Positions 11,012-30,568 of a stretch of DNA of 40,229 bases are shown in pieces; position 1 is the stretch's first letter, and each line of letters opens with the position of its first letter. The translations under genes and the position numbers were made by a program. Source of the stretch: Cyanobacteria bacterium UBA7694 (GTDB lineage Bacteria; Cyanobacteriota; Sericytochromatia; UBA7694); contig DLGM01000366.1 in assembly GCA_002482705.1 (NCBI GenBank), forward strand, positions 1 through 40,229. Reading direction: 5' to 3'. The notes below the pieces were generated by a model. That model was not told the DNA's origin, searched no databases, and was given only the letters and a program-made list of their open reading frames with translations.

Positions 11012-11877
11012 TGCAGAAGTTGTGGTACGGCCTAGGGGCCGCTTTTAGCCTATGCTTTAGTGCTTATGCTGCCGAGATCGAAGTCAAACCAAGCACAACG
11101 CTCATTCAAGGACAGCCATTCCAAGTGCGCATAGCTGTAAACGAGAGTGACCCTACGCCCGCTCAGCTCACCTTTGGCACCCAAAAGATCCCCTTGAGCC
11201 AGGATGAACAAGGGCCGTTTGCGTTTGTCAGCAGCGCTGGCGACCAAAAGCCCGGTGGTTACACATTACGGATTTTGGACGCAGAAGGGCAAGTGCTCAC
11301 ACAGCAGCTCATCGAAATCAAAGCCGGAAGCTTTTATACCCAAAATATTCGTTACCGCGCACCGGTACCCAATCCCGAACAAAAAAAAATCTTAGACCAA
11401 GAAGAAGCCCTGGTTGACAAAGCTCGCTCGGCTTGGAGTCCGATCGCACTCTGGGGAACACAAGCCTTTACAGTCCCTGTGCCCCATCGCATCAGTGCCG
11501 TCTACGGGACGCGTCGTTATCTCAACGGCACTTATAATCGTTATCATTCAGGCGTCGATTTTGCCAGCCCTGGCGGTTACCCGATCAAAGCACCCGCTGC
11601 CGCCACCGTGACTTTAGCGCGCTATTTTTCACCCTTTAACTCCAATGGCAACATTGTCTTTCTGGATCATGGCGCAGGCATTACTTCTGTTTATATTCAC
11701 CTGAGCAAATTGGGTGTCAAAGAGGGTGAGCAGGTCACAGCCGGGCAAACCATAGGTTACATCGGGAGCACTGGCCGTTCTACCGGCCCTCATCTCCATT
11801 GGGGCCTGTATGTCCATGGGCAAAACACCGATGGCCTCGGCTGGATCAAATTGACACAGGCCCTAGCGAAGCCCTGA
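11011..11877 (+). CDS. M23 (LytM-type) metallopeptidase with signal peptide
   Basis: 288 aa. Motifs are YHSGVDFASPGGYPIKAPA and GSTGRSTGPHLHWGLYVHG (HxxxD and HxH). The start overlaps the carboxylase stop by 1 nt (TAATG). Confidence 0.9.
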   Translation: MQKLWYGLGAAFSLCFSAYAAEIEVKPSTTLIQGQPFQVRIAVNESDPTPAQLTFGTQKIPLSQDEQGPFAFVSSAGDQKPGGYTLRILDAEGQVLTQQLIEIKAGSFYTQNIRYRAPVPNPEQKKILDQEEALVDKARSAWSPIALWGTQAFTVPVPHRISAVYGTRRYLNGTYNRYHSGVDFASPGGYPIKAPAAATVTLARYFSPFNSNGNIVFLDHGAGITSVYIHLSKLGVKEGEQVTAGQTIGYIGSTGRSTGPHLHWGLYVHGQNTDGLGWIKLTQALAKP

Positions 11878-12489
11878 TCCCGCCAAAATTCGCGCCAGCT
11901 CCAACGCATCTACCGCCGGATTCCCAAGTGTTCCCTGAGCCTCAGACTGCTGTAACTCAGCCATCACCGTCCCAAGTTGTGACTGAAAGCGCCGCAGGGC
12001 ATTTTGCTGGTCACTTTGCTCCAGGGCACTGGTTTCTTGGATATCTGCTTTTAAATGCTGCACTTGGGGTAAAATCTTTTCATAATAATGGCGCTGATTC
12101 GCCTCCATCATTTTGCGGGCATATTCTAAGGAGCGATCCATGGCATCGAGCAAAGTCTGGATATTTTGCTGCTCTGCATCGCGTACCACAGCTAATATTT
12201 CAGCGACCTGTGGATCATTCCCATCCAATTGTCCCCGGGCCATCAGATCTGTCAGTGCATCACTGCCCGAAGCCGATGAATCCGCAAAAGAAACAGATTT
12301 GGGTTCGCCGCTGTGGGCCAAAGGCAAAGGGCTCACCCCATTGTGATCGGGGCTAAAAGTTGGCGTTTCAGAGGGTGAAATTGCAGGATTGGCACTATTC
12401 CCAGGAGTAAGAGGTACTGTAGGCCCGACCACTGGAGGCATTCCCGATACCCCCTCATGGTGATTCCCTGCCAGATGTAAGTGCGTCAT
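11863..12489 (-). CDS. Hypothetical protein with a Pro/Ser-rich N-half and a Gln-rich helical C-half
   Basis: 208 aa. A strong SD is present (GGAGG, 5 nt, ATG on the minus strand). The antisense + ORF 11799-12356 is W/C/H/P-rich and looks spurious. The 3' end overlaps the M23 gene end by 15 nt (convergent). Confidence 0.65.
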   Translation of the reverse strand: MTHLHLAGNHHEGVSGMPPVVGPTVPLTPGNSANPAISPSETPTFSPDHNGVSPLPLAHSGEPKSVSFADSSASGSDALTDLMARGQLDGNDPQVAEILAVVRDAEQQNIQTLLDAMDRSLEYARKMMEANQRHYYEKILPQVQHLKADIQETSALEQSDQQNALRRFQSQLGTVMAELQQSEAQGTLGNPAVDALELARILAGSGLR

Positions 12490-12828
12490 AGAAGCCTCCT
12501 ATCACTGAAACATGAAGGTATTGTACCCACCCTTGACTTTCTTTAAGCAAATGAGCGATCCCGATCACAATTGGGATCTGAGTGGTGATATAAAAACCAG
12601 AAAAACAAGACCATCATTGATTTACACATCATTTTTCTAATTGTTAAATTTATTTAGAAACCGTTAAGTCTGAGGCTGATTTGCTAAAGATGTTTAAATG
12701 ATCGTTTTTTTCAGCAAGTTTTGGGGGTGGGTGGCTATAGTTATTATGTAAAGATTAAAACGCTTAACTCAAGCTTAACCAGCACGGAAAGCAAACGACA
12801 GATTTAGACCATGTATGCGGAGGACCCC

Positions 12829-13182
12829 ATGAGCATCAACAGACTTAACGGAAACAACAGCAGTTTCGATTTTTCCGTTTCCAAGAACAGCCGCGCGGCT
12901 AAGGCGGGCGCAGCCGCTGGTCAAGGTGGATCCGTTCAGTCTGCAGGCGCAAAACCATCTGCCCAAGGCAACGGTGACATCCTTGCCATTAGCACCATCG
13001 CAGGTGCCGCTGGTGGTGGCGTTGCAGCCGCTCAAGTATCCCTCGGTGGCGGCAGCCTTCCTTCCACCACAGCCATCAGCGCCCTCAAAGGTGCAGCGGT
13101 CGAAATGACCAAAGAAAATCGTGAAAATCAAACCATCATGGCTTTGGCACAACAAATCGTCAACGACATGTTTGCCGCTTAG
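12829..13182 (+). CDS. Hypothetical Gly/Ala/Ser-rich, probably disordered protein with a C-terminal helix. A FlgM-like layout is possible but unproven.
   Basis: 117 aa from MSINRLNGNN. GGAGG at 12819-12823 lies 5 nt before the ATG at 12829. The track start at 12811 has no SD. It is the first gene of a tightly spaced three-gene set. Confidence 0.55.
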   Translation: MSINRLNGNNSSFDFSVSKNSRAAKAGAAAGQGGSVQSAGAKPSAQGNGDILAISTIAGAAGGGVAAAQVSLGGGSLPSTTAISALKGAAVEMTKENRENQTIMALAQQIVNDMFAA

Positions 13183-13193
13183 GAGCCAGAATC

Positions 13194-13565
13194 TTGAGCG
13201 AGCCAGCCATTGTTATTAACCTTGATGACGGCAAAGAAGCTCTCGTTCAACAGGTTAGCGAGATCTTAAAACGTTATTCCGTATACCTTAAAGAGGGGGA
13301 CATCAACCTCTCTTTTATTTTGCGTAAGAATGGTGAAAAAGATCGGGAATTCAGTTATAATTTCACCAAGGATGGGTATGAAACTAAGGAAAAAGACGTT
13401 GTCTTTCCTGTAGTGGTCCGCGAAATTCTACGCAAAGAGTTCCCTGAAAAAATTGCTTCCAACCCCAAACTGGTAAAGCATGTCATGCAGGATCTCAAAA
13501 ACGACCCTTACTGGTCTGACAATGTGGTCAAGTTACTGGACGCCATCCAGACCTACAGCAAGTAA
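13194..13565 (+). CDS. Hypothetical small charged cytoplasmic protein
   Basis: 123 aa with a TTG start 8 nt after AGGAG (13181-13185). It is AT-rich relative to its flanks. I recognise no motif. Confidence 0.6.
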   Translation: MSEPAIVINLDDGKEALVQQVSEILKRYSVYLKEGDINLSFILRKNGEKDREFSYNFTKDGYETKEKDVVFPVVVREILRKEFPEKIASNPKLVKHVMQDLKNDPYWSDNVVKLLDAIQTYSK

Positions 13566-13576
13566 GGAGAAGTAAC

Positions 13577-13891
13577 ATGGCGATTATCCCTATCTCTGAT
13601 TCAGGTCCGATGAAATCAGAAGTAGCCAAGCAAATGGGTACCCAAGCAAATCGGGATGCCACCAACCTTAAGATAACCCCCGCCCTTGAGCAAGTGGTGC
13701 ACCAAACTCCTTACGGCAAAGATGGGATGTTACTCTCCAATAAAGATCAGTACAGCGCACTGTCTACCATTCTGCCCAACTCTGAACTGGAAAAATCTCG
13801 CCAGGAACTCAAAAAAGAGAAGAAAAAAAAGAAAAAAGACAAAGAAGAAAAGAAGAAACAAAACTTCTGGCAGTGGCTGTTTTCTAAGTAG
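13577..13891 (+). CDS. Hypothetical protein with a poly-Lys tract and an aromatic C-terminal tail
   Basis: 104 aa. AAGGAG lies upstream of the ATG. The C-terminus reads ELKKEKKKKKKDKEEKKKQNFWQWLFSK. Confidence 0.6.
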   Translation: MAIIPISDSGPMKSEVAKQMGTQANRDATNLKITPALEQVVHQTPYGKDGMLLSNKDQYSALSTILPNSELEKSRQELKKEKKKKKKDKEEKKKQNFWQWLFSK

Positions 13892-13915: not shown

Positions 13916-13934
13916 AGCCCGGCCAGTCCGGGCT
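13916..13934 (+). terminator. Intrinsic terminator-like hairpin after the three small genes
   Basis: The hairpin is AGCCCGG-ccagt-CCGGGCT, followed by ttctacatttt. Confidence 0.6.
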
Positions 13935-13977
13935 TTCTACATTTTCAGCCTCAATTATCCACTATTTGCTTAAAATA

Positions 13978-14006
13978 TAGAAATAGACTTGAAAAAATGA
14001 TACAAT
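13978..14006 (+). promoter_or_regulatory. Extended -10 promoter candidate for the rod/hook-like gene
   Basis: TGaTACAAT lies at 13998-14006, with a weak -35 (TAGAAA, 13978-13983) at 17-bp spacing. It sits about 35 nt upstream of the ATG at 14042. Confidence 0.45.
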
Positions 14007-14041
14007 CATAGAACGTGAAGCAAGAATGGTGGAGGTACCCC

Positions 14042-15043
14042 ATGGCCGGAAGCGGAATGAATGGAATCAGAGATGCCCTCAAGGCAACCCAACAAATTAT
14101 TGGTATTGAAGCCTCTAATTTGGTACGCAGCCAAATCCCGGGTGCCCAAGAAGTCCGAGCCACTCTCAGCAACAACAATACCGTTCAGCTTGGTAACGGG
14201 AAACAAGCCGGTGCCGCAGGCGGCAGTATCTCAGCCACCACCCTCGCCTTTAACCAAGGTTCGATCCGCCCCACAGGCTTCACCACTGATTTGGCCATTA
14301 ACGGCAGTGGCTTCTTTATTTTACAGGCCTCTAACCAACAGCTCTATTACACCCGCCGGGGCGACTTCCACTTTGATGCCAGTGGGCAATTGGTCAATAA
14401 CGATGGTTTAAAGGTCATGAGCCTGAACCCCAGTACAGGCAAGCTGGAACCCATGACGGTCGAAGTCTCACCCACCACCACCGAAAATGGGGGTCGGATT
14501 CTCGACTTATTACGAGAAAATGATTCCCTCAGTGCCGCTGAGATCGAAACCGCCCTCGGATTACCCCCCGCTACCGTCAACGCAGAAATTGGCATTCTTC
14601 AAGCCTCTGAGTACATTGTCACCTTTAACCAAGCTGGGGTCACCCGTTATGCCAGCAACCTTGGCAAAGTGGGAGATCAGGTCGATTTTGACCGTGATGG
14701 TTTTTTGGTCAATCAGACCCGGGGCTTGCGCAAGGGCAACCAGTTGGCTTTGGCTGTTTTCCCCAACCCCCAAGGGTTGGCCCCCACCCAATTTGGAGGT
14801 GAGGTCTATAAAACGACAGATGCTGCTGCCCCTGGGGGCGTTCCCGATATTGGGGGTCCAGGAGATATCGGTTTAGATCTTGGCAGTATTCAAAGTCAAG
14901 CGTTAGAGAGTTCCACCAGTGATGTTCCCAATAGCCTTACAGCCATGGGAATCTGGCAGCGAAACTTCACGGCAACAACAGCCGCTCTGAAAACCTTTTT
15001 AGCTGCCTGGGATGATTTGGTTAACACTTTCCGCGCCGCATGA
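14042..15043 (+). CDS. Divergent flagellar basal-body rod / hook family (FlgF/FlgG/FlgE-like) protein with an internal winged-helix-like insert
   Basis: 333 aa from MAGSGMNGIRD. GGAGG at 14031-14035 lies 6 nt before the ATG. Family blocks are GIRDALKATQQIIGIEASNLV (N-terminal rod helix), TTDLAINGSGFFIL, YYTRRGDFHFDASGQLVNNDGLKV, QLALAVFPNPQGLAPTQFGGEVYKTT, and C-terminal ALESSTSDVPNSLTAMGIWQRNFTATTAALKTF. The insert (nt 14483-14656) reads ENGGRILDLLRENDSLSAAEIETALGLPPATVNAEIGILQASEYIVTFNQAGVTRY. Confidence 0.75.
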   Translation: MAGSGMNGIRDALKATQQIIGIEASNLVRSQIPGAQEVRATLSNNNTVQLGNGKQAGAAGGSISATTLAFNQGSIRPTGFTTDLAINGSGFFILQASNQQLYYTRRGDFHFDASGQLVNNDGLKVMSLNPSTGKLEPMTVEVSPTTTENGGRILDLLRENDSLSAAEIETALGLPPATVNAEIGILQASEYIVTFNQAGVTRYASNLGKVGDQVDFDRDGFLVNQTRGLRKGNQLALAVFPNPQGLAPTQFGGEVYKTTDAAAPGGVPDIGGPGDIGLDLGSIQSQALESSTSDVPNSLTAMGIWQRNFTATTAALKTFLAAWDDLVNTFRAA

Positions 15044-15510
15044 TTTTGTTATCCCTGCTGATGGGCTGTGGGCTATTATTAATTACCTGCAGCCTGATCG
15101 GAGGGGGGTTCTCACGCGAATACCGCTGGGTTCCGGCAGGAGTAGGCATGCTCTTGTTGATGCAAACCGGAATTTTGAGCATCAGGCAGCCACGCTCCAC
15201 ATCACCCCCACCAACAACAGAACAAGCAGCCATACGCTCCCTACATGACCCCAAGGCTCAAGACTGGCTCAATGCCTCCCCTGCTGTCCGTCAAGCTACC
15301 GCCATTCAATGGCTCAAGGATTTGCGTCTCCGCGGCACATTCGTTTTGACCATCCGCAGCGAAACGGAATATACGCAGTGGGCAGCCGCATTAAACCGTT
15401 GCCTAGAGCATAAGGCCGAGAAACTGAGTGCACAGACCGAACTCCTCAGTTTTGTAGAAACACAATGTTTACCCAAACTAAAACATTATCGTTATGGCAA
15501 AAACCCATAA
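15040..15510 (+). CDS. Hypothetical membrane-anchored protein, translationally coupled to the rod/hook-like gene
   Basis: 156 aa. Its ATG overlaps the upstream stop (ATGA, 15040-15043). It has two N-terminal hydrophobic segments and then a soluble domain. I recognise no motif. Confidence 0.6.
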   Translation: MILLSLLMGCGLLLITCSLIGGGFSREYRWVPAGVGMLLLMQTGILSIRQPRSTSPPPTTEQAAIRSLHDPKAQDWLNASPAVRQATAIQWLKDLRLRGTFVLTIRSETEYTQWAAALNRCLEHKAEKLSAQTELLSFVETQCLPKLKHYRYGKNP

Positions 15511-15558: not shown

Positions 15559-16140
15559 CTACAAGCTAGCGAGATAAGCCGTCAAATTCGTGAACTCTTC
15601 ATCAGTCATGCTCGCGCGCATAGGCGGCATAGCAGGGGGGAAACCCTCTACAACGTGCGCATTAGGATTTTCAATCGATGTTTTAATGTAAGTTAACGCA
15701 TCCTGACCAGCAACACGCTTAGCCGCCGTAGCCCCAAGCCCATCCAAAGCAGGCCCAATGGCACCGTTGGCGCCTTGAAGACTGGAGATTTTATGGCAGG
15801 TTGCACAGGTTTTAGCCAAGAAGACCTTGGCACCCGCTTCTACATCACCTGCTGCCACGGGCGTCGCAGCGGGTTCATTCGCTGCGGTATGTCCGCTCTC
15901 CGTTGAAGCATGTGTACTGGGTGCGGTTTCAGTTTTAGTTCCATGCTCGGGAGCATCAGCGCTATGGCCCGAAGCAGCCGCATGGGTTTCCGTTTGCGCC
16001 CCATGGTCACCGCCTTCGGCACTGTGATGGCCTGCAACGGCATTTGTAGTTACCACGGAAACCACAAACAGCACACCCACGATGGCTATCACCGAGAGGA
16101 ATGAGAGCGCAATGACCTTGAGTTGATCGATAGGTTTCAT
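15559..16140 (-). CDS. Membrane-anchored mono-haem cytochrome c with a His-rich linker
   Basis: 193 aa. It has an N-terminal TM helix, a His-rich spacer (GHHSAEGGDHGAQTETHAAASGHSADAPEHG...) and a C-terminal CATCHK haem-binding domain. Confidence 0.85.
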   Translation of the reverse strand: MKPIDQLKVIALSFLSVIAIVGVLFVVSVVTTNAVAGHHSAEGGDHGAQTETHAAASGHSADAPEHGTKTETAPSTHASTESGHTAANEPAATPVAAGDVEAGAKVFLAKTCATCHKISSLQGANGAIGPALDGLGATAAKRVAGQDALTYIKTSIENPNAHVVEGFPPAMPPMRASMTDEEFTNLTAYLASL

Positions 16141-16169
16141 GAGTTATATTCCTTTTCTAAAATCGCACG

Positions 16170-16382
16170 TTAGTGGTGCTCACCCGCACCCTCATGCGAG
16201 GATGTGGTTTCATGGCCTGTTGAACCATGGTCTGTATTGCCATGGCCTTCTTCATGATGAGCATCGGCTTTAGGAGCCGGATCAGGCATAGCCATAGACA
16301 GGGCACTCAGGGCGCCAATCATGACCAACACAGCGGCAAGACCCGCAAAAATAGGTTTAAGTGACTGCTTATTAGACTGCAT
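16170..16382 (-). CDS. Small single-TM protein with a His-rich C-terminal tail
   Basis: 70 aa. One TM segment (IFAGLAAVLVMIGALSALSMA) is followed by HHEEGHGNTDHGSTGHETTSSHEGAGEHH, which has 8 His in 29 residues. It lies between ctaG and the cytochrome c gene. Confidence 0.6.
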   Translation of the reverse strand: MQSNKQSLKPIFAGLAAVLVMIGALSALSMAMPDPAPKADAHHEEGHGNTDHGSTGHETTSSHEGAGEHH

Positions 16383-27753: not shown

Positions 27754-29625
27754 TTATTCGTCGTTGAGTACCCGGCTGAAACGGGCCGTTTTAACTGGTG
27801 CTTGGGATATCGCCCCAGGGCTGCGCAATTGATTGATATACTTTTTCCGCTGCGGCAAATGCACAGCGGAAAGCTGAAACTCTTGCACCATTTCGCGTAA
27901 TTCTTCGCCAAATTCAGCCACAGCCCGGGCCGATTCAAGGGTTTGTTGAGCAATACGATCATTCCCGTGAGCTACCTTTTCAACCTCTGAAACGGCGGCC
28001 TGGGTCCGCTCAATCGAAGTCACCTGACGGGCGGTATCCAAACGAATCGCCTGAGAGGCCTTGCTAATATCAGCCGTTGCCTGCACAATCTGCTGATTGC
28101 TTTCTTCTTGGCGCTCAGTGGCCTGCACAATTTGTTTGATCATCTGACTGACCTGCTCAATCGTTTGGACCGTGTTTTCTGTATTAAAGGCCTGGGCTTT
28201 GACTTCTTCGGTAACTTTGTTGACCTGATGGCTCATGTCTTCAGCACGAGCGGCAATATGCTCAGCAGCGCGGGCCTGTTCTTCGGCCCCCTCTCTGATT
28301 TGTTCAATCAAACTCACCGTAGTCTCTACGCCCTTGATAACCTGATTAATTTTACCGCCTGTTTCAGCAGCCAAACGAGCCCCTTCTTCTGCCTGGTTTA
28401 CCCCACCACGGACAGTTTTCACCGCACCTTCAGCCTCCACTTGGATACCACGAATCAGCTCCGAGATTTCTTTAGTGGCACGGCTGGAACGCTCAGCCAG
28501 TTTGCGCACCTCATCAGCGACCACAGCAAAACCTTTCCCATGCTCACCAGCCCGAGCCGCTTCAATCGCAGCGTTAAGCGCCAATAAGTTAGTCTGATCA
28601 GAGATATCATCAATAACATTAATAATTTCACCGATTTTCTGGGTGCTAGCACCCAGATGCTCAATAACACTAGAAGCTTCTAGAACAACCTCTTTGAGAT
28701 GGTTTATGCCGTGAATGGTCTTTTGCACCGAGGCACTGCCTTCAAAGGCCGCTTCCTGCATATCTTGGCCCAAACGGGCACCCTCTTGAATACTAAAAGA
28801 GACCTCATTAAAACTGGAGGAGAGCTGATTAATGGCCGCTGAGACATCCGCAGTGCCTCGGCTGATAAACTCTGCACTGCGACGGATTTCATTAAAGGCA
28901 TTAAAGTTTTGGGAAACAACGATGGATACTTGGTCACTCGCATTAGAAAGCTTCTGAATGCTGCTGGTCGATTCCGTTAGATTTTTTGCCACCTGCTCAA
29001 TTTGGCGATTGGTTTCGGTAGCACGCAAAGCCAGAGCTGAGGCCTGTTCATCAATACCGCGCACCGATCGGCTGACTTCTTCCATAGAGCCCGATATCTC
29101 AGAAATAGCCGAAGCCTGTTTGGCTGCACCCGTCGCTGTTTCGCGGGCCAAAGACTGAATTTCCCCAGAAGCTTGGGCAGTTTGGTTAGAGGTTTCTAAG
29201 ATGCGGCCAAATTTTTCATTGAGGTTATGGGTCATCTCATTAAAGGTATGGGCCAGTTCGGCAAATTCGTCCTGGGTACGCACTACCGCTGTGCGCGTAA
29301 GATTCCCACCCGCAATTGAGTTGGCAACTTGGTTGACCTCCTTGAGGGATCGGGTAATCTGACGGGTTTGGCGGAAAGCCAGAACCAGCAAAATCAGTTG
29401 TGACAACCCAAACCACACAACGGTAGGCCAAAATATTTGTGACTGAATACGCACACTTTCTTGATAAAGACGGGTCGTCTGCTCAGTTTTAACATCAATG
29501 TGCGTATACATTCCCTGAAGCTTTTGGCTCAGTTGGCCTAGCCCTGTCAAACTGATAATAACAATCACCAGCAGCGAAAACGAGGTAATCGAGAAACTTA
29601 CCATCAGCTTGGCAAATATTTTCAT
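27754..29625 (-). CDS. Methyl-accepting chemotaxis protein with a minimal periplasmic loop, a HAMP domain and an unusually long signalling domain
   Basis: 623 aa from [11 protein letters not shown]. Its ATG overlaps the cheW stop (ATGA). It has two TM segments separated by about 35 aa, and a HAMP domain ([19 protein letters not shown]...[13 protein letters not shown]). The conserved hairpin tip is [40 protein letters not shown]. The track extension to 29787 overlaps cheW. Confidence 0.92.
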
Positions 29626-30080
29626 ACAGCCTCCTGTAGTTGAGGGGTTAAGTGATAATCCTGTAAGACCGTATCGAGAGAAAGCACCATAAAAATCCCA
29701 TCCTTGAGGCGTCCAACCCCCAATACAGCATCTTGATAAGCGAGCGCACTGGTAACCGGTTCGAGGGGGATTTCTGACAAAACCCACACTTCCATGACCT
29801 GATCGACCACCAAACCAATGCTTTCATCTTGGCTGCGGACAATAATAAAACGGGTAGAAGCCTGAAGCGGCTCAGCACCCAAACCTAAACGAGGGGCTAA
29901 ATGAATCAGCGGGACAATTTGACCCCGCAAATTGATGACGCCAGCAATCCAGTTTGGGGTGAGTGGAACTGGGGTAATCGGCAACGGGCGAATAATCTCT
30001 TGCACATTGAGAATATCGAGGGCATAACGCTCCGCCGCCAAACGAAAGCTGACCACCTGTTGAATGGTGCTGAGTGTCAT
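29622..30080 (-). CDS. cheW: Chemotaxis coupling protein CheW
   Basis: 152 aa. The sequence [32 protein letters not shown]...[14 protein letters not shown] is typical of the CheW fold. Confidence 0.9.
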
Positions 30081-30568
30081 GGGGTTGGCCTCCGGTATAA
30101 CAGAGCATGCACCGAGAATGCCCCCTGTTCAGTGGCAATCGGCACTGCAAAATGTAACCATGGGGGAGGCAGCACATGGGCAGGAGGCTGTACTCCCGCC
30201 AAGTCAAAGACTTGGGGCAGCCCAATGCTAAAGAGATCTTGACGTTGTTGGGTTAAGGCCGTTTTAATGCCGCCAGCAATCATATTGGTAACTTCAGCCA
30301 CCGCCTCAAGCACTTCTTCATTCACAGTCATTAAGGGTTCTTGTAAAAGACGTGCAGCCAGCTCAATCGCCAGCGGGTAAGAGAGCTGCAGAGAGAGAGA
30401 CCCGTTGAGCTGCCCATGAATATCGATGGTTCCCAACACTTCTGGTGGGGGTAACTCAGGATTGACATCTGGCAAAATCCGCAGGGGAATCATCGTAGAA
30501 AACAACTGTTTCACGGAAATTCTCACTGCGTCGATAAAGGCACGCTCCTCCAGCAGCACTGCTCCCAA
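30077..30568 (-). CDS. cheX: CheX/CheC-family CheY-P phosphatase
   Basis: 163 aa. It has EAVAEVTNMIAGG (the E-x2-N catalytic motif in the CheC/CheX/FliY family) and sits between cheY and cheW. The start is uncertain: TTG lies 3 nt after the cheY stop and there is no clear SD. Confidence 0.75.
   Translation of the reverse strand: MGAVLLEERAFIDAVRISVKQLFSTMIPLRILPDVNPELPPPEVLGTIDIHGQLNGSLSLQLSYPLAIELAARLLQEPLMTVNEEVLEAVAEVTNMIAGGIKTALTQQRQDLFSIGLPQVFDLAGVQPPAHVLPPPWLHFAVPIATEQGAFSVHALLYRRPTP

Follow-up and report, generated by a model that had tools for sequence, protein, structure and literature searches.

How a fold typical of DNA-binding regulators comes to lie inside a flagellar axial protein, and what it could do there, is the question raised by a single gene of Cyanobacteria bacterium UBA7694, a member of the Sericytochromatia, which are non-photosynthetic relatives of cyanobacteria. 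The gene lies in a stretch of 40,229 nucleotides (contig DLGM01000366.1 of assembly GCA_002482705.1, positions 1 to 40,229 of the forward strand), referred to below as the window, and its product is named FlgX here. The original prediction, read from the letters of the DNA, had described a solitary, divergent rod or hook protein of 333 amino acids (aa) interrupted by a winged helix-turn-helix (wHTH) segment, and had proposed that it might be a regulator controlled by export. FlgX represents a distinct, solitary subfamily of the FlgE/F/G proteins with a winged-helix outer domain. The explanation preferred for it as the most economical, with roughly even confidence, is that of a hook-type axial subunit in which a winged helix that derives from a regulator and is blind to DNA stands in place of the outer domain D2.

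The open reading frame (ORF) stands as first described, with its ATG at 14042 and its stop codon at 15041-15043. This ATG is favoured over an upstream GTG at 14015 because of a GGAGG Shine-Dalgarno sequence and the N-termini of the orthologues (MSGSGINGIR...). The base composition of the window (G+C about 51%) is unbroken at FlgX. In pairs of orthologues with unsaturated synonymous divergence (dS 0.34-1.3), the ratio of nonsynonymous to synonymous substitution rates (dN/dS) lies between 0.01 and 0.03 over the full gene and between 0 and 0.04 within the insert, and since it is low in each, body and insert must both be functional; the value for the whole gene also rules out a decaying pseudogene. 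The parts of the gene are as follows, the helices and the insert being taken from an AlphaFold2 (AF2) model.

14042..15043, plus strand: FlgX, axial protein of the FlgE/F/G family (333 aa), interrupted by a winged-helix domain (ORF and translation)
14031-14035, plus strand: Shine-Dalgarno GGAGG, 6 nt 5' of ATG 14042 (sequence reading)
14051..14128, plus strand: N-terminal D0 helix, residues 4-29, motif EAsNLxRSQIPGAq
14150..14473, plus strand: Dc and first half of D1, residues 37-144, with PF22692 at 85-137 and residues 55-144 aligned to Salmonella FlgE 45-133
14474..14659, plus strand: winged-helix insert, residues 145-206 (62 aa), with helices H1 (148-160), H2 (165-172) and H3 (176-188) and wing 192-205
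14660..14926, plus strand: second half of D1, residues 207-295, placed by alignment to FlgE 268-398, pairwise identity 0.70
14936..15034, plus strand: C-terminal D0 helix, residues 299-331, motif QRNFTxTxAAxKxFLxAWDDL

The body of an axial protein

FlgX belongs to the FlgE/F/G axial-protein superfamily. The NCBIfam model FlgEFG_subfam (TIGR03506) scores 120.2 bits over residues 56-311 (cutoff 70.25), and PF22692 (LlgE_F_G_D1), the sole Pfam domain found in the body, scores 52.7 bits (gathering score 27) and is present in all 34 members of the family. The AF2 model of the whole protein, computed from 16 orthologues, has a mean predicted local distance difference test (pLDDT) score of 75, with only 50-73 at the termini, and shows a D1 rich in beta-strands between two long helices (residues 4-29 and 299-331). 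Compared with the PDB by Foldseek, the model is matched best by chains of FlgG (PDB 7CBM, 7BIN, 8WKI, 8Z5U and 6JZR) at an E-value of about 1e-16 and a target-normalised template modelling (TM) score of 0.75-0.83, with FlgE hooks next at a TM score of 0.53. When the family profile is compared with the sequences of the PDB, Salmonella FlgE is the best match with 84.8 bits and FlgG reaches 54.9 bits. The ordered FlgF/FlgG/FlgE blocks that had been recognised in the sequence are thus borne out by sequence models and by predicted structure.

The profile alignment pairs FlgX 55-144 with FlgE 45-133 and FlgX ~194-326 with FlgE 268-398, the C-terminus aligning to FlgE 364-398 (ALEaSN...QRNYqsna; FlgE segment QRNYQSNAQTIK). 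Therefore the insert occupies the place of the outer domain D2 of FlgE (FlgE ~134-267). FlgX and the FlgE of Salmonella (PDB 3A69, 6JZT, 6K9Q) share a collinear D0-Dc-D1 body with a domain inserted at the same loop of D1, but where FlgE carries a beta-rich D2 of about 130 residues (PF07559), FlgX carries an alpha/beta winged helix of 62 residues, and PF07559 finds no match in it.

Both termini are collinear with those of FlgE and FlgG and keep invariant residues of their own. Across the 34 members these are N26, R29 and G34, with A24, S30 and P33 near-invariant, at the N-terminal end, and Q306, R307, F309, T310, A315, F319, A322, D324 and D325 at the C-terminal end. Mean pairwise identity is 0.66-0.70 over the D0 and D1 segments (0.66-0.69 in the terminal helices, 0.69-0.70 in D1, and 0.69 over residues 1-36), against 0.48 in the insert. 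The termini of axial proteins, which are disordered in monomers, serve chiefly in type III export and tube assembly.

A winged helix at the site of D2

The insert had been placed at nt 14483-14656 (residues 148-205), between the family blocks, and had been judged a winged helix, and both statements were confirmed. Its pLDDT in the whole-protein model is 82-92, its topology H1-b-H2-H3-b-b, and a separate model of residues 142-210 from 28 sequences reaches a pLDDT of 87. With the insert alone as query, all 50 of the top 50 Foldseek matches are wHTH proteins (query-normalised TM score 0.68-0.86, root-mean-square deviation (rmsd) 0.8-3.6 A). The list is headed by ArsR/SmtB regulators, namely SrnR (PDB 7P6F), ArsR (6J05), HlyU (4K2E/3JTH), NolR (4OMZ), CzrA (1R1U) and CadC (1U2W), whose wHTH core superposes on the insert over 59-67 columns with a query-normalised TM score of 0.76-0.83 and an rmsd of 0.8-2.2 A among the top-ranked matches.

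At the level of sequence, the Pfam model HTH_24 matches FlgX itself with 21.3 bits, 0.6 bit under its gathering score of 21.9, and is matched by 8/34 family members at E<=0.01, the best at E = 9e-7. MarR_2 and HTH_5 are matched by six of the 34 each, others match IclR and TrmB, and HTH_20 is among the weak but consistent matches. A profile of the insert finds ArsR proteins and Z-alpha domains in the PDB at E-values of about 0.0015. Because orthologues match Pfam wHTH families and the profile matches ArsR proteins of the PDB, the insert is homologous to wHTH regulators, beyond a mere likeness of shape. A scaffold motif, L..L+..G.V...G...Y, is common to the insert and the ArsR/SmtB proteins.

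True homology to DNA-binding regulators, good conservation under purifying selection and K187 in helix 3, the sole conserved basic residue of the insert (K or R in 30/32 sequences), would all speak for a domain that still binds DNA in the cytoplasm. The surface of the domain, however, points the other way. The insert is acidic in each of the 15 orthologues tested, with an isoelectric point (pI) of 4.05-5.4 and a net charge of -1 to -10. Its fixed positions are core residues (G150, L154, L157, L172, L183, L186, Y191, F203 and N206), while helix 3 varies at its exposed positions, where D or E is frequent; the exposed face of the wing is likewise variable and often acidic, and the insert alignment holds no conserved K or R in the wing. 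Compared with an ArsR-family protein of known structure, the insert retains the scaffold motif but has EPLATVQAE in place of RQAAVSQQ, and so no polar start to the recognition helix, and TEFTQAG in place of the basic wing SRREGK. The dimerisation helices alpha1 and alpha5 of ArsR are absent. With only 62 residues the insert has no space for them, consisting as it does of three helices and a wing, both ends of which run into strands of D1, and it also lacks the flanks that form metal or ligand sites. Unlike the ArsR/SmtB regulators, it is embedded inside the beta-domain of another protein and has an acidic pI. The fold was kept and the nucleic-acid-binding surface would have been lost, leaving a domain that may be called DNA-blind.

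The insert among orthologues and relatives

The insert is present in all 33 orthologues of FlgX, of which 32 are 52-59% identical to it (329-342 aa) and one is 98% identical. Those that carry a name all come from Candidatus Sericytochromatia or Blackallbacteria, and so do all 11 matches in a collection of species-representative genomes. The original prediction had considered that the segment might simply be typical of its lineage and that FlgX might belong to a full flagellar regulon; the former is what the orthologues show, and a full regulon was not seen in the window or in the genomic contexts covered.

Run exhaustively against 1.84 billion representatives, the profile returned only 22 proteins at E<=1e-30. 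The best eight of the 22, with 172-546 bits, form the FlgX subfamily, and most of the other matches listed are longer proteins (many of more than 400 aa) with 94-159 bits. Within the subfamily the insert form has two representatives, P0001 and P0085, and six relatives lack a wHTH domain (P0033, P0086, P0087, P0088 and P0090, of about 250 aa, and P0089, of 375 aa). The N- and C-terminal motifs of the subfamily are common to the relatives too. Insert-less relatives are rarer than insert-bearing orthologues, and at about 250-260 aa they have the size of FlgG, in agreement with the earlier estimate that the protein would be FlgF/FlgG-sized without its insert. The subfamily as a whole is rare, with one or two members per cluster among 15 billion proteins.

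Two variants show further changes. P0085 (L022:1852-3069, plus strand; 405 aa) carries two tandem winged-helix modules at the D2 site. Its gene lies beside those of TrmD and of a TolQ/ExbB-like protein; the latter, a MotA/ExbB-family gene, was considered as a stator and ruled out by its TolQ/ExbB-like character. P0089, P0234 and P0235 (375-376 aa) have no wHTH domain and carry instead an unrelated insert of about 120 aa at a different loop of D1. In the example at L018:3319-4449 (plus strand), it follows the GFFxL strand of D1 (TFTVNGSTVVVNAATDTFQNVLDNISAATGGQVTAAYD).

By analogy, a domain that is present once, twice or never in proteins with the same body is behaving as the outer decoration domains of axial proteins do. 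Flagellins carry hypervariable outer domains of diverse folds on a conserved D0/D1 core (PMC11532411). As with the insert of FlgX, these domains are inserted at a fixed loop and vary in number between relatives, although that survey, unlike the present case, concerns flagellin and not hook or rod proteins (PMC11532411). No axial protein whose outer domain is a winged helix derived from a regulator turned up in the literature, nor any other precedent for the combination; the supposition of a working DNA-binding domain is not supported.

A proposed hook-type subunit and its rivals

On the preferred explanation, one clade of Sericytochromatia would build a structure of flagellar type with FlgX as its FlgE-like subunit. 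Having kept its D0 helices, Dc and D1, FlgX would leave the cell through the flagellar type III apparatus and stack into a tube, the remainder of the apparatus being presumed. An ancestor would have captured the winged-helix core of an ArsR/SmtB-type protein at the loop of D1 where FlgE has D2. The captured module would then have lost its DNA-binding features, turning acidic and shedding the basic wing, the polar contacts of the recognition helix and the dimerisation helices, and would survive as a compact, folded domain facing outward from the surface of the polymer. There it may take the role of D2 in lateral contacts between subunits and in surface properties. Speaking for this explanation are the family and fold of the body, the place of the insert, the conservation of the terminal helices, the low dN/dS of both parts, the acidic surface without DNA contacts, the modularity of the insert and the precedent of the flagellins, and in addition the chemotaxis cluster of the window (listed below) and the flagellated members of Vampirovibrionia, the sister class (PMC5877343, PMC6340189).

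Several observations weigh against this explanation. The degradation of the terminal signatures noted in the original prediction extends to the whole family. At E<=0.01, neither PF00460 (Flg_bb_rod) nor PF06429 (Flg_bbr_C), both of which set FlgE apart from FlgX, matches any of the 34 members, and this suggests altered packing partners. In the N-terminal region, the position of the common ANNLANxxTxGFK signature is held by the collinear but divergent motif EAsNLxRSQIPGAq. The equivalog models of FlgE, FlgF and FlgG all score far under their cutoffs: the best FlgE model, NF004238, gives 98.4 bits against 400 (the FlgE cutoffs are all at least 365), and the FlgG models TIGR02488 and NF009278 give 81.2 against 252.75 and 96.4 against 350. 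Hook genes usually adjoin flgD, fliK or other flagellar genes. The FlgX gene does not, and the earlier statement that the window is free of fli, flh, flg and mot genes holds for the 41 ORFs scanned; nor do canonical flagellar genes occur within 10 kb on either side in nine independent contexts of the subfamily. A homology search from FlgX, in which candidates had been preselected by shared words and which is weak for that reason, attributed no canonical FlgE, FlgF or FlgG to the Sericytochromatia, and no report of flagella or motility was found in the literature on Sericytochromatia, Blackallbacteria and Tanganyikabacteria.

These observations lend themselves to a serious rival, unlikely on the whole, in which the flagellum and its export apparatus have been lost and FlgX persists as a repurposed, solitary descendant of rod or hook proteins with a new role, for example in a scaffold or polymer unrelated to flagella in which the D0 helices hold the subunits together and the acidic winged helix serves as a protein-protein or DNA-mimicking module. 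In a fuller form, rather unlikely as well, its hosts would have no export apparatus, and FlgX and its insert-less relatives would be unrecognised, flagellum-independent, self-assembling descendants of rod and hook proteins with a DNA-blind winged-helix interaction surface. The solitary position of the gene in all nine contexts, among housekeeping neighbours that differ by lineage, fits this picture, as do the lack of canonical terminal signatures in a distinct subfamily, the great rarity of that subfamily and the strong purifying selection that sets FlgX apart from a pseudogene. A fusion of a MerR-type HTH domain to FliG(M/C) near one insert-less relative also hints at a co-option of flagellar parts. 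FlgX further has a promoter-like site of its own and is divided by a hairpin from the operon upstream.

13916..13945, plus strand: terminator-like hairpin AGCCCGG-CCAGT-CCGGGCT with a T-rich tail, dividing the upstream three-gene operon from FlgX (sequence reading)
13978..14006, plus strand: promoter-like site TAGAAA-17-TACAAT, TG-extended, upstream of FlgX; a candidate from a consensus scan only (9/12 matches), which is not in itself evidence of function
27754-30568, minus strand: cluster of a methyl-accepting chemotaxis protein (MCP) with HAMP domain (27754-29787), CheW (29622-30080) and the phosphatase CheX (30077-30568)

The hairpin went unreported in the consensus scan because its run of T residues is interrupted. 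The third feature, which the original prediction did not mention, tells against a relic, since chemotaxis genes in the window imply a taxis-controlled motility device in the organism. The relic is weakened because both D0 helices, tied chiefly to type III export and tube packing, are retained, strongly conserved and collinear with those of exported axial proteins. FlgX moreover has no signal peptide or other targeting feature, and its insert behaves as an outer decoration domain.

A hook subunit has also to be set against a protein of the distal rod, of the FlgG or FlgF type, whose winged helix would face the periplasm in a basal body without a tight LP-ring bushing. The best structural matches of FlgX are chains of FlgG (target-normalised TM score about 0.8), its Dc (residues 37-61), as read from the alignment, is longer than that of FlgE and nearer to the length in FlgG, and without the insert its size is that of FlgG. 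FlgG itself, however, has no outer domain where FlgX has one of 62 aa, since the distal rod runs inside the LP ring. The hook is preferred since FlgE is the better match in sequence (84.8 versus 54.9 bits) and since the rod lies within that ring; to judge from basal-body structures of Salmonella, the P and L rings would leave no space for a rod protein with an outer domain, and the FlgG equivalog models stay far under their cutoffs. A distal-rod protein therefore appears quite improbable.

A transcription regulator that binds DNA in the cytoplasm until secretion removes it, as in the logic of FlgM, is highly improbable because the insert is acidic, has lost the DNA-contact positions and lacks the dimerisation helices, and further because it is tethered in D1 at the site of D2, is doubled in P0085 and missing from close relatives with the same body, and has no FliA- or FlgM-type partners or flagellar promoters nearby. 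FlgM is a small, disordered binder of sigma-28 and not an axial protein; FlgX has no sequence similarity to it and would share with it only the proposed removal by export.

Surroundings of the FlgX gene

Upstream of FlgX the window holds genes for DnaJ, LptF/G, an acetyl-CoA carboxyltransferase and an M23 peptidase, and downstream of it a caa3-type cytochrome c oxidase operon, PBP2/RodA and subunits of NADH dehydrogenase. Among the relatives, the contexts L003/L024, L015 (from a contig of 5.18 Mb), L016/L017, L018, L022 and L025 show no synteny with one another. The M23 peptidase was considered as a FlgJ-like partner and set aside, as its best match is to cell-shape and division endopeptidases and it is syntenic with the carboxyltransferase gene. 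Near-identical strains hold contigs of 91 kb and 180 kb.

The small ORFs on either side of FlgX are the following.

12811-13182, plus strand: s123a, 123 aa, first of a trio of small ORFs conserved upstream of FlgX in Sericytochromatia
13194-13565, plus strand: s123b, 123 aa, second of the trio, 69-81% identical across loci
13577-13891, plus strand: s104, 104 aa, third of the trio, 66-86% identical across loci
15040..15510, plus strand: d156, membrane-type ORF of 156 aa with two N-terminal hydrophobic segments, its ATG overlapping the stop codon of FlgX (ATGA)

The trio is confined to Sericytochromatia, and s123b and s104 are better conserved than FlgX itself. Divergent FlgB, FlgC and FliE, or FlgM and chaperones, were considered as identities for the three and rejected, as searches of Pfam and NCBIfam at E<=10 and of PDB sequences by profile came back empty. 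The trio was not counted as part of the FlgX feature because of this lack of matches, because it occurs without FlgX in divergent low-GC Sericytochromatia (L019-L021), and because the hairpin and the promoter-like site lie in between; for the last two reasons FlgX, together with d156, is treated as a separate unit. The s104 protein closes with a run rich in lysine (KKEKKKKKKDKEEKKK) and, after it, the invariant aromatic residues of FWxWLFxK; this looks like a membrane- or nucleic-acid-binding tail. The d156 ORF directly follows FlgX in 9/12 full-length orthologous loci, being missing from the L006/L010/L012 subclade, and matches no family in Pfam or NCBIfam.

Always between the M23 peptidase gene and the trio lies a divergently transcribed ORF of 208 aa (11863-12489, minus strand) with an N-terminal half rich in Pro, Ser and Gln and a conserved helical C-terminal half (29-42% identical across loci); it has no family match. 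Two His-rich proteins are encoded beside the caa3 oxidase operon (15559-16382, minus strand), the first a membrane-anchored cytochrome c of 193 aa with a linker rich in His and Glu, the second a protein of 70 aa ending in HHEEGHGNTDHGSTGHETTSSHEGAGEHH; the pair may handle metal (copper) for assembly of the oxidase.

Two neighbourhoods of insert-less relatives deserve description. The MerR-type HTH::FliG(M/C) fusion is a protein of 314 aa encoded at L016:6021-6965 (minus strand; same coordinates in L017), 3 kb upstream of P0086. It scores 48 bits with the CueR model and 115.9 bits with TIGR00207, aligned to FliG 145-331, and thus offers another case in which a module of flagellar origin is linked with a domain of DNA-binding type. 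In one lineage, at L003:303-2903 and L024:8397-11884, an insert-less FlgX-like gene is flanked by a DUF58 gene and by one or two genes for CxxCxxCC domains, which match PF03692 weakly. That family includes the flagellin methylase FliB. This small conserved neighbourhood is unlike the one found in Sericytochromatia.

Significance

The outer domains of axial proteins are evolutionarily plastic. If the explanation preferred here is true, such domains would have a source not seen before, in a module that was taken over from a transcription regulator and lost the surface with which it bound DNA, and the insert of FlgX would illustrate cleanly how a DNA-binding fold can be reused as a structural building block. 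The protein also bears on the fate of the flagellum along the lineage leading to the Cyanobacteria, whose oxygenic members have no flagella, as the Sericytochromatia keep a solitary and atypical axial gene under strong constraint. Whether an export apparatus is present in the hosts of FlgX would decide between an unusual hook and a repurposed relic. If it proves absent, FlgX and the MerR::FliG fusion together would point to a wholesale co-option of flagellar parts after the organelle was lost.

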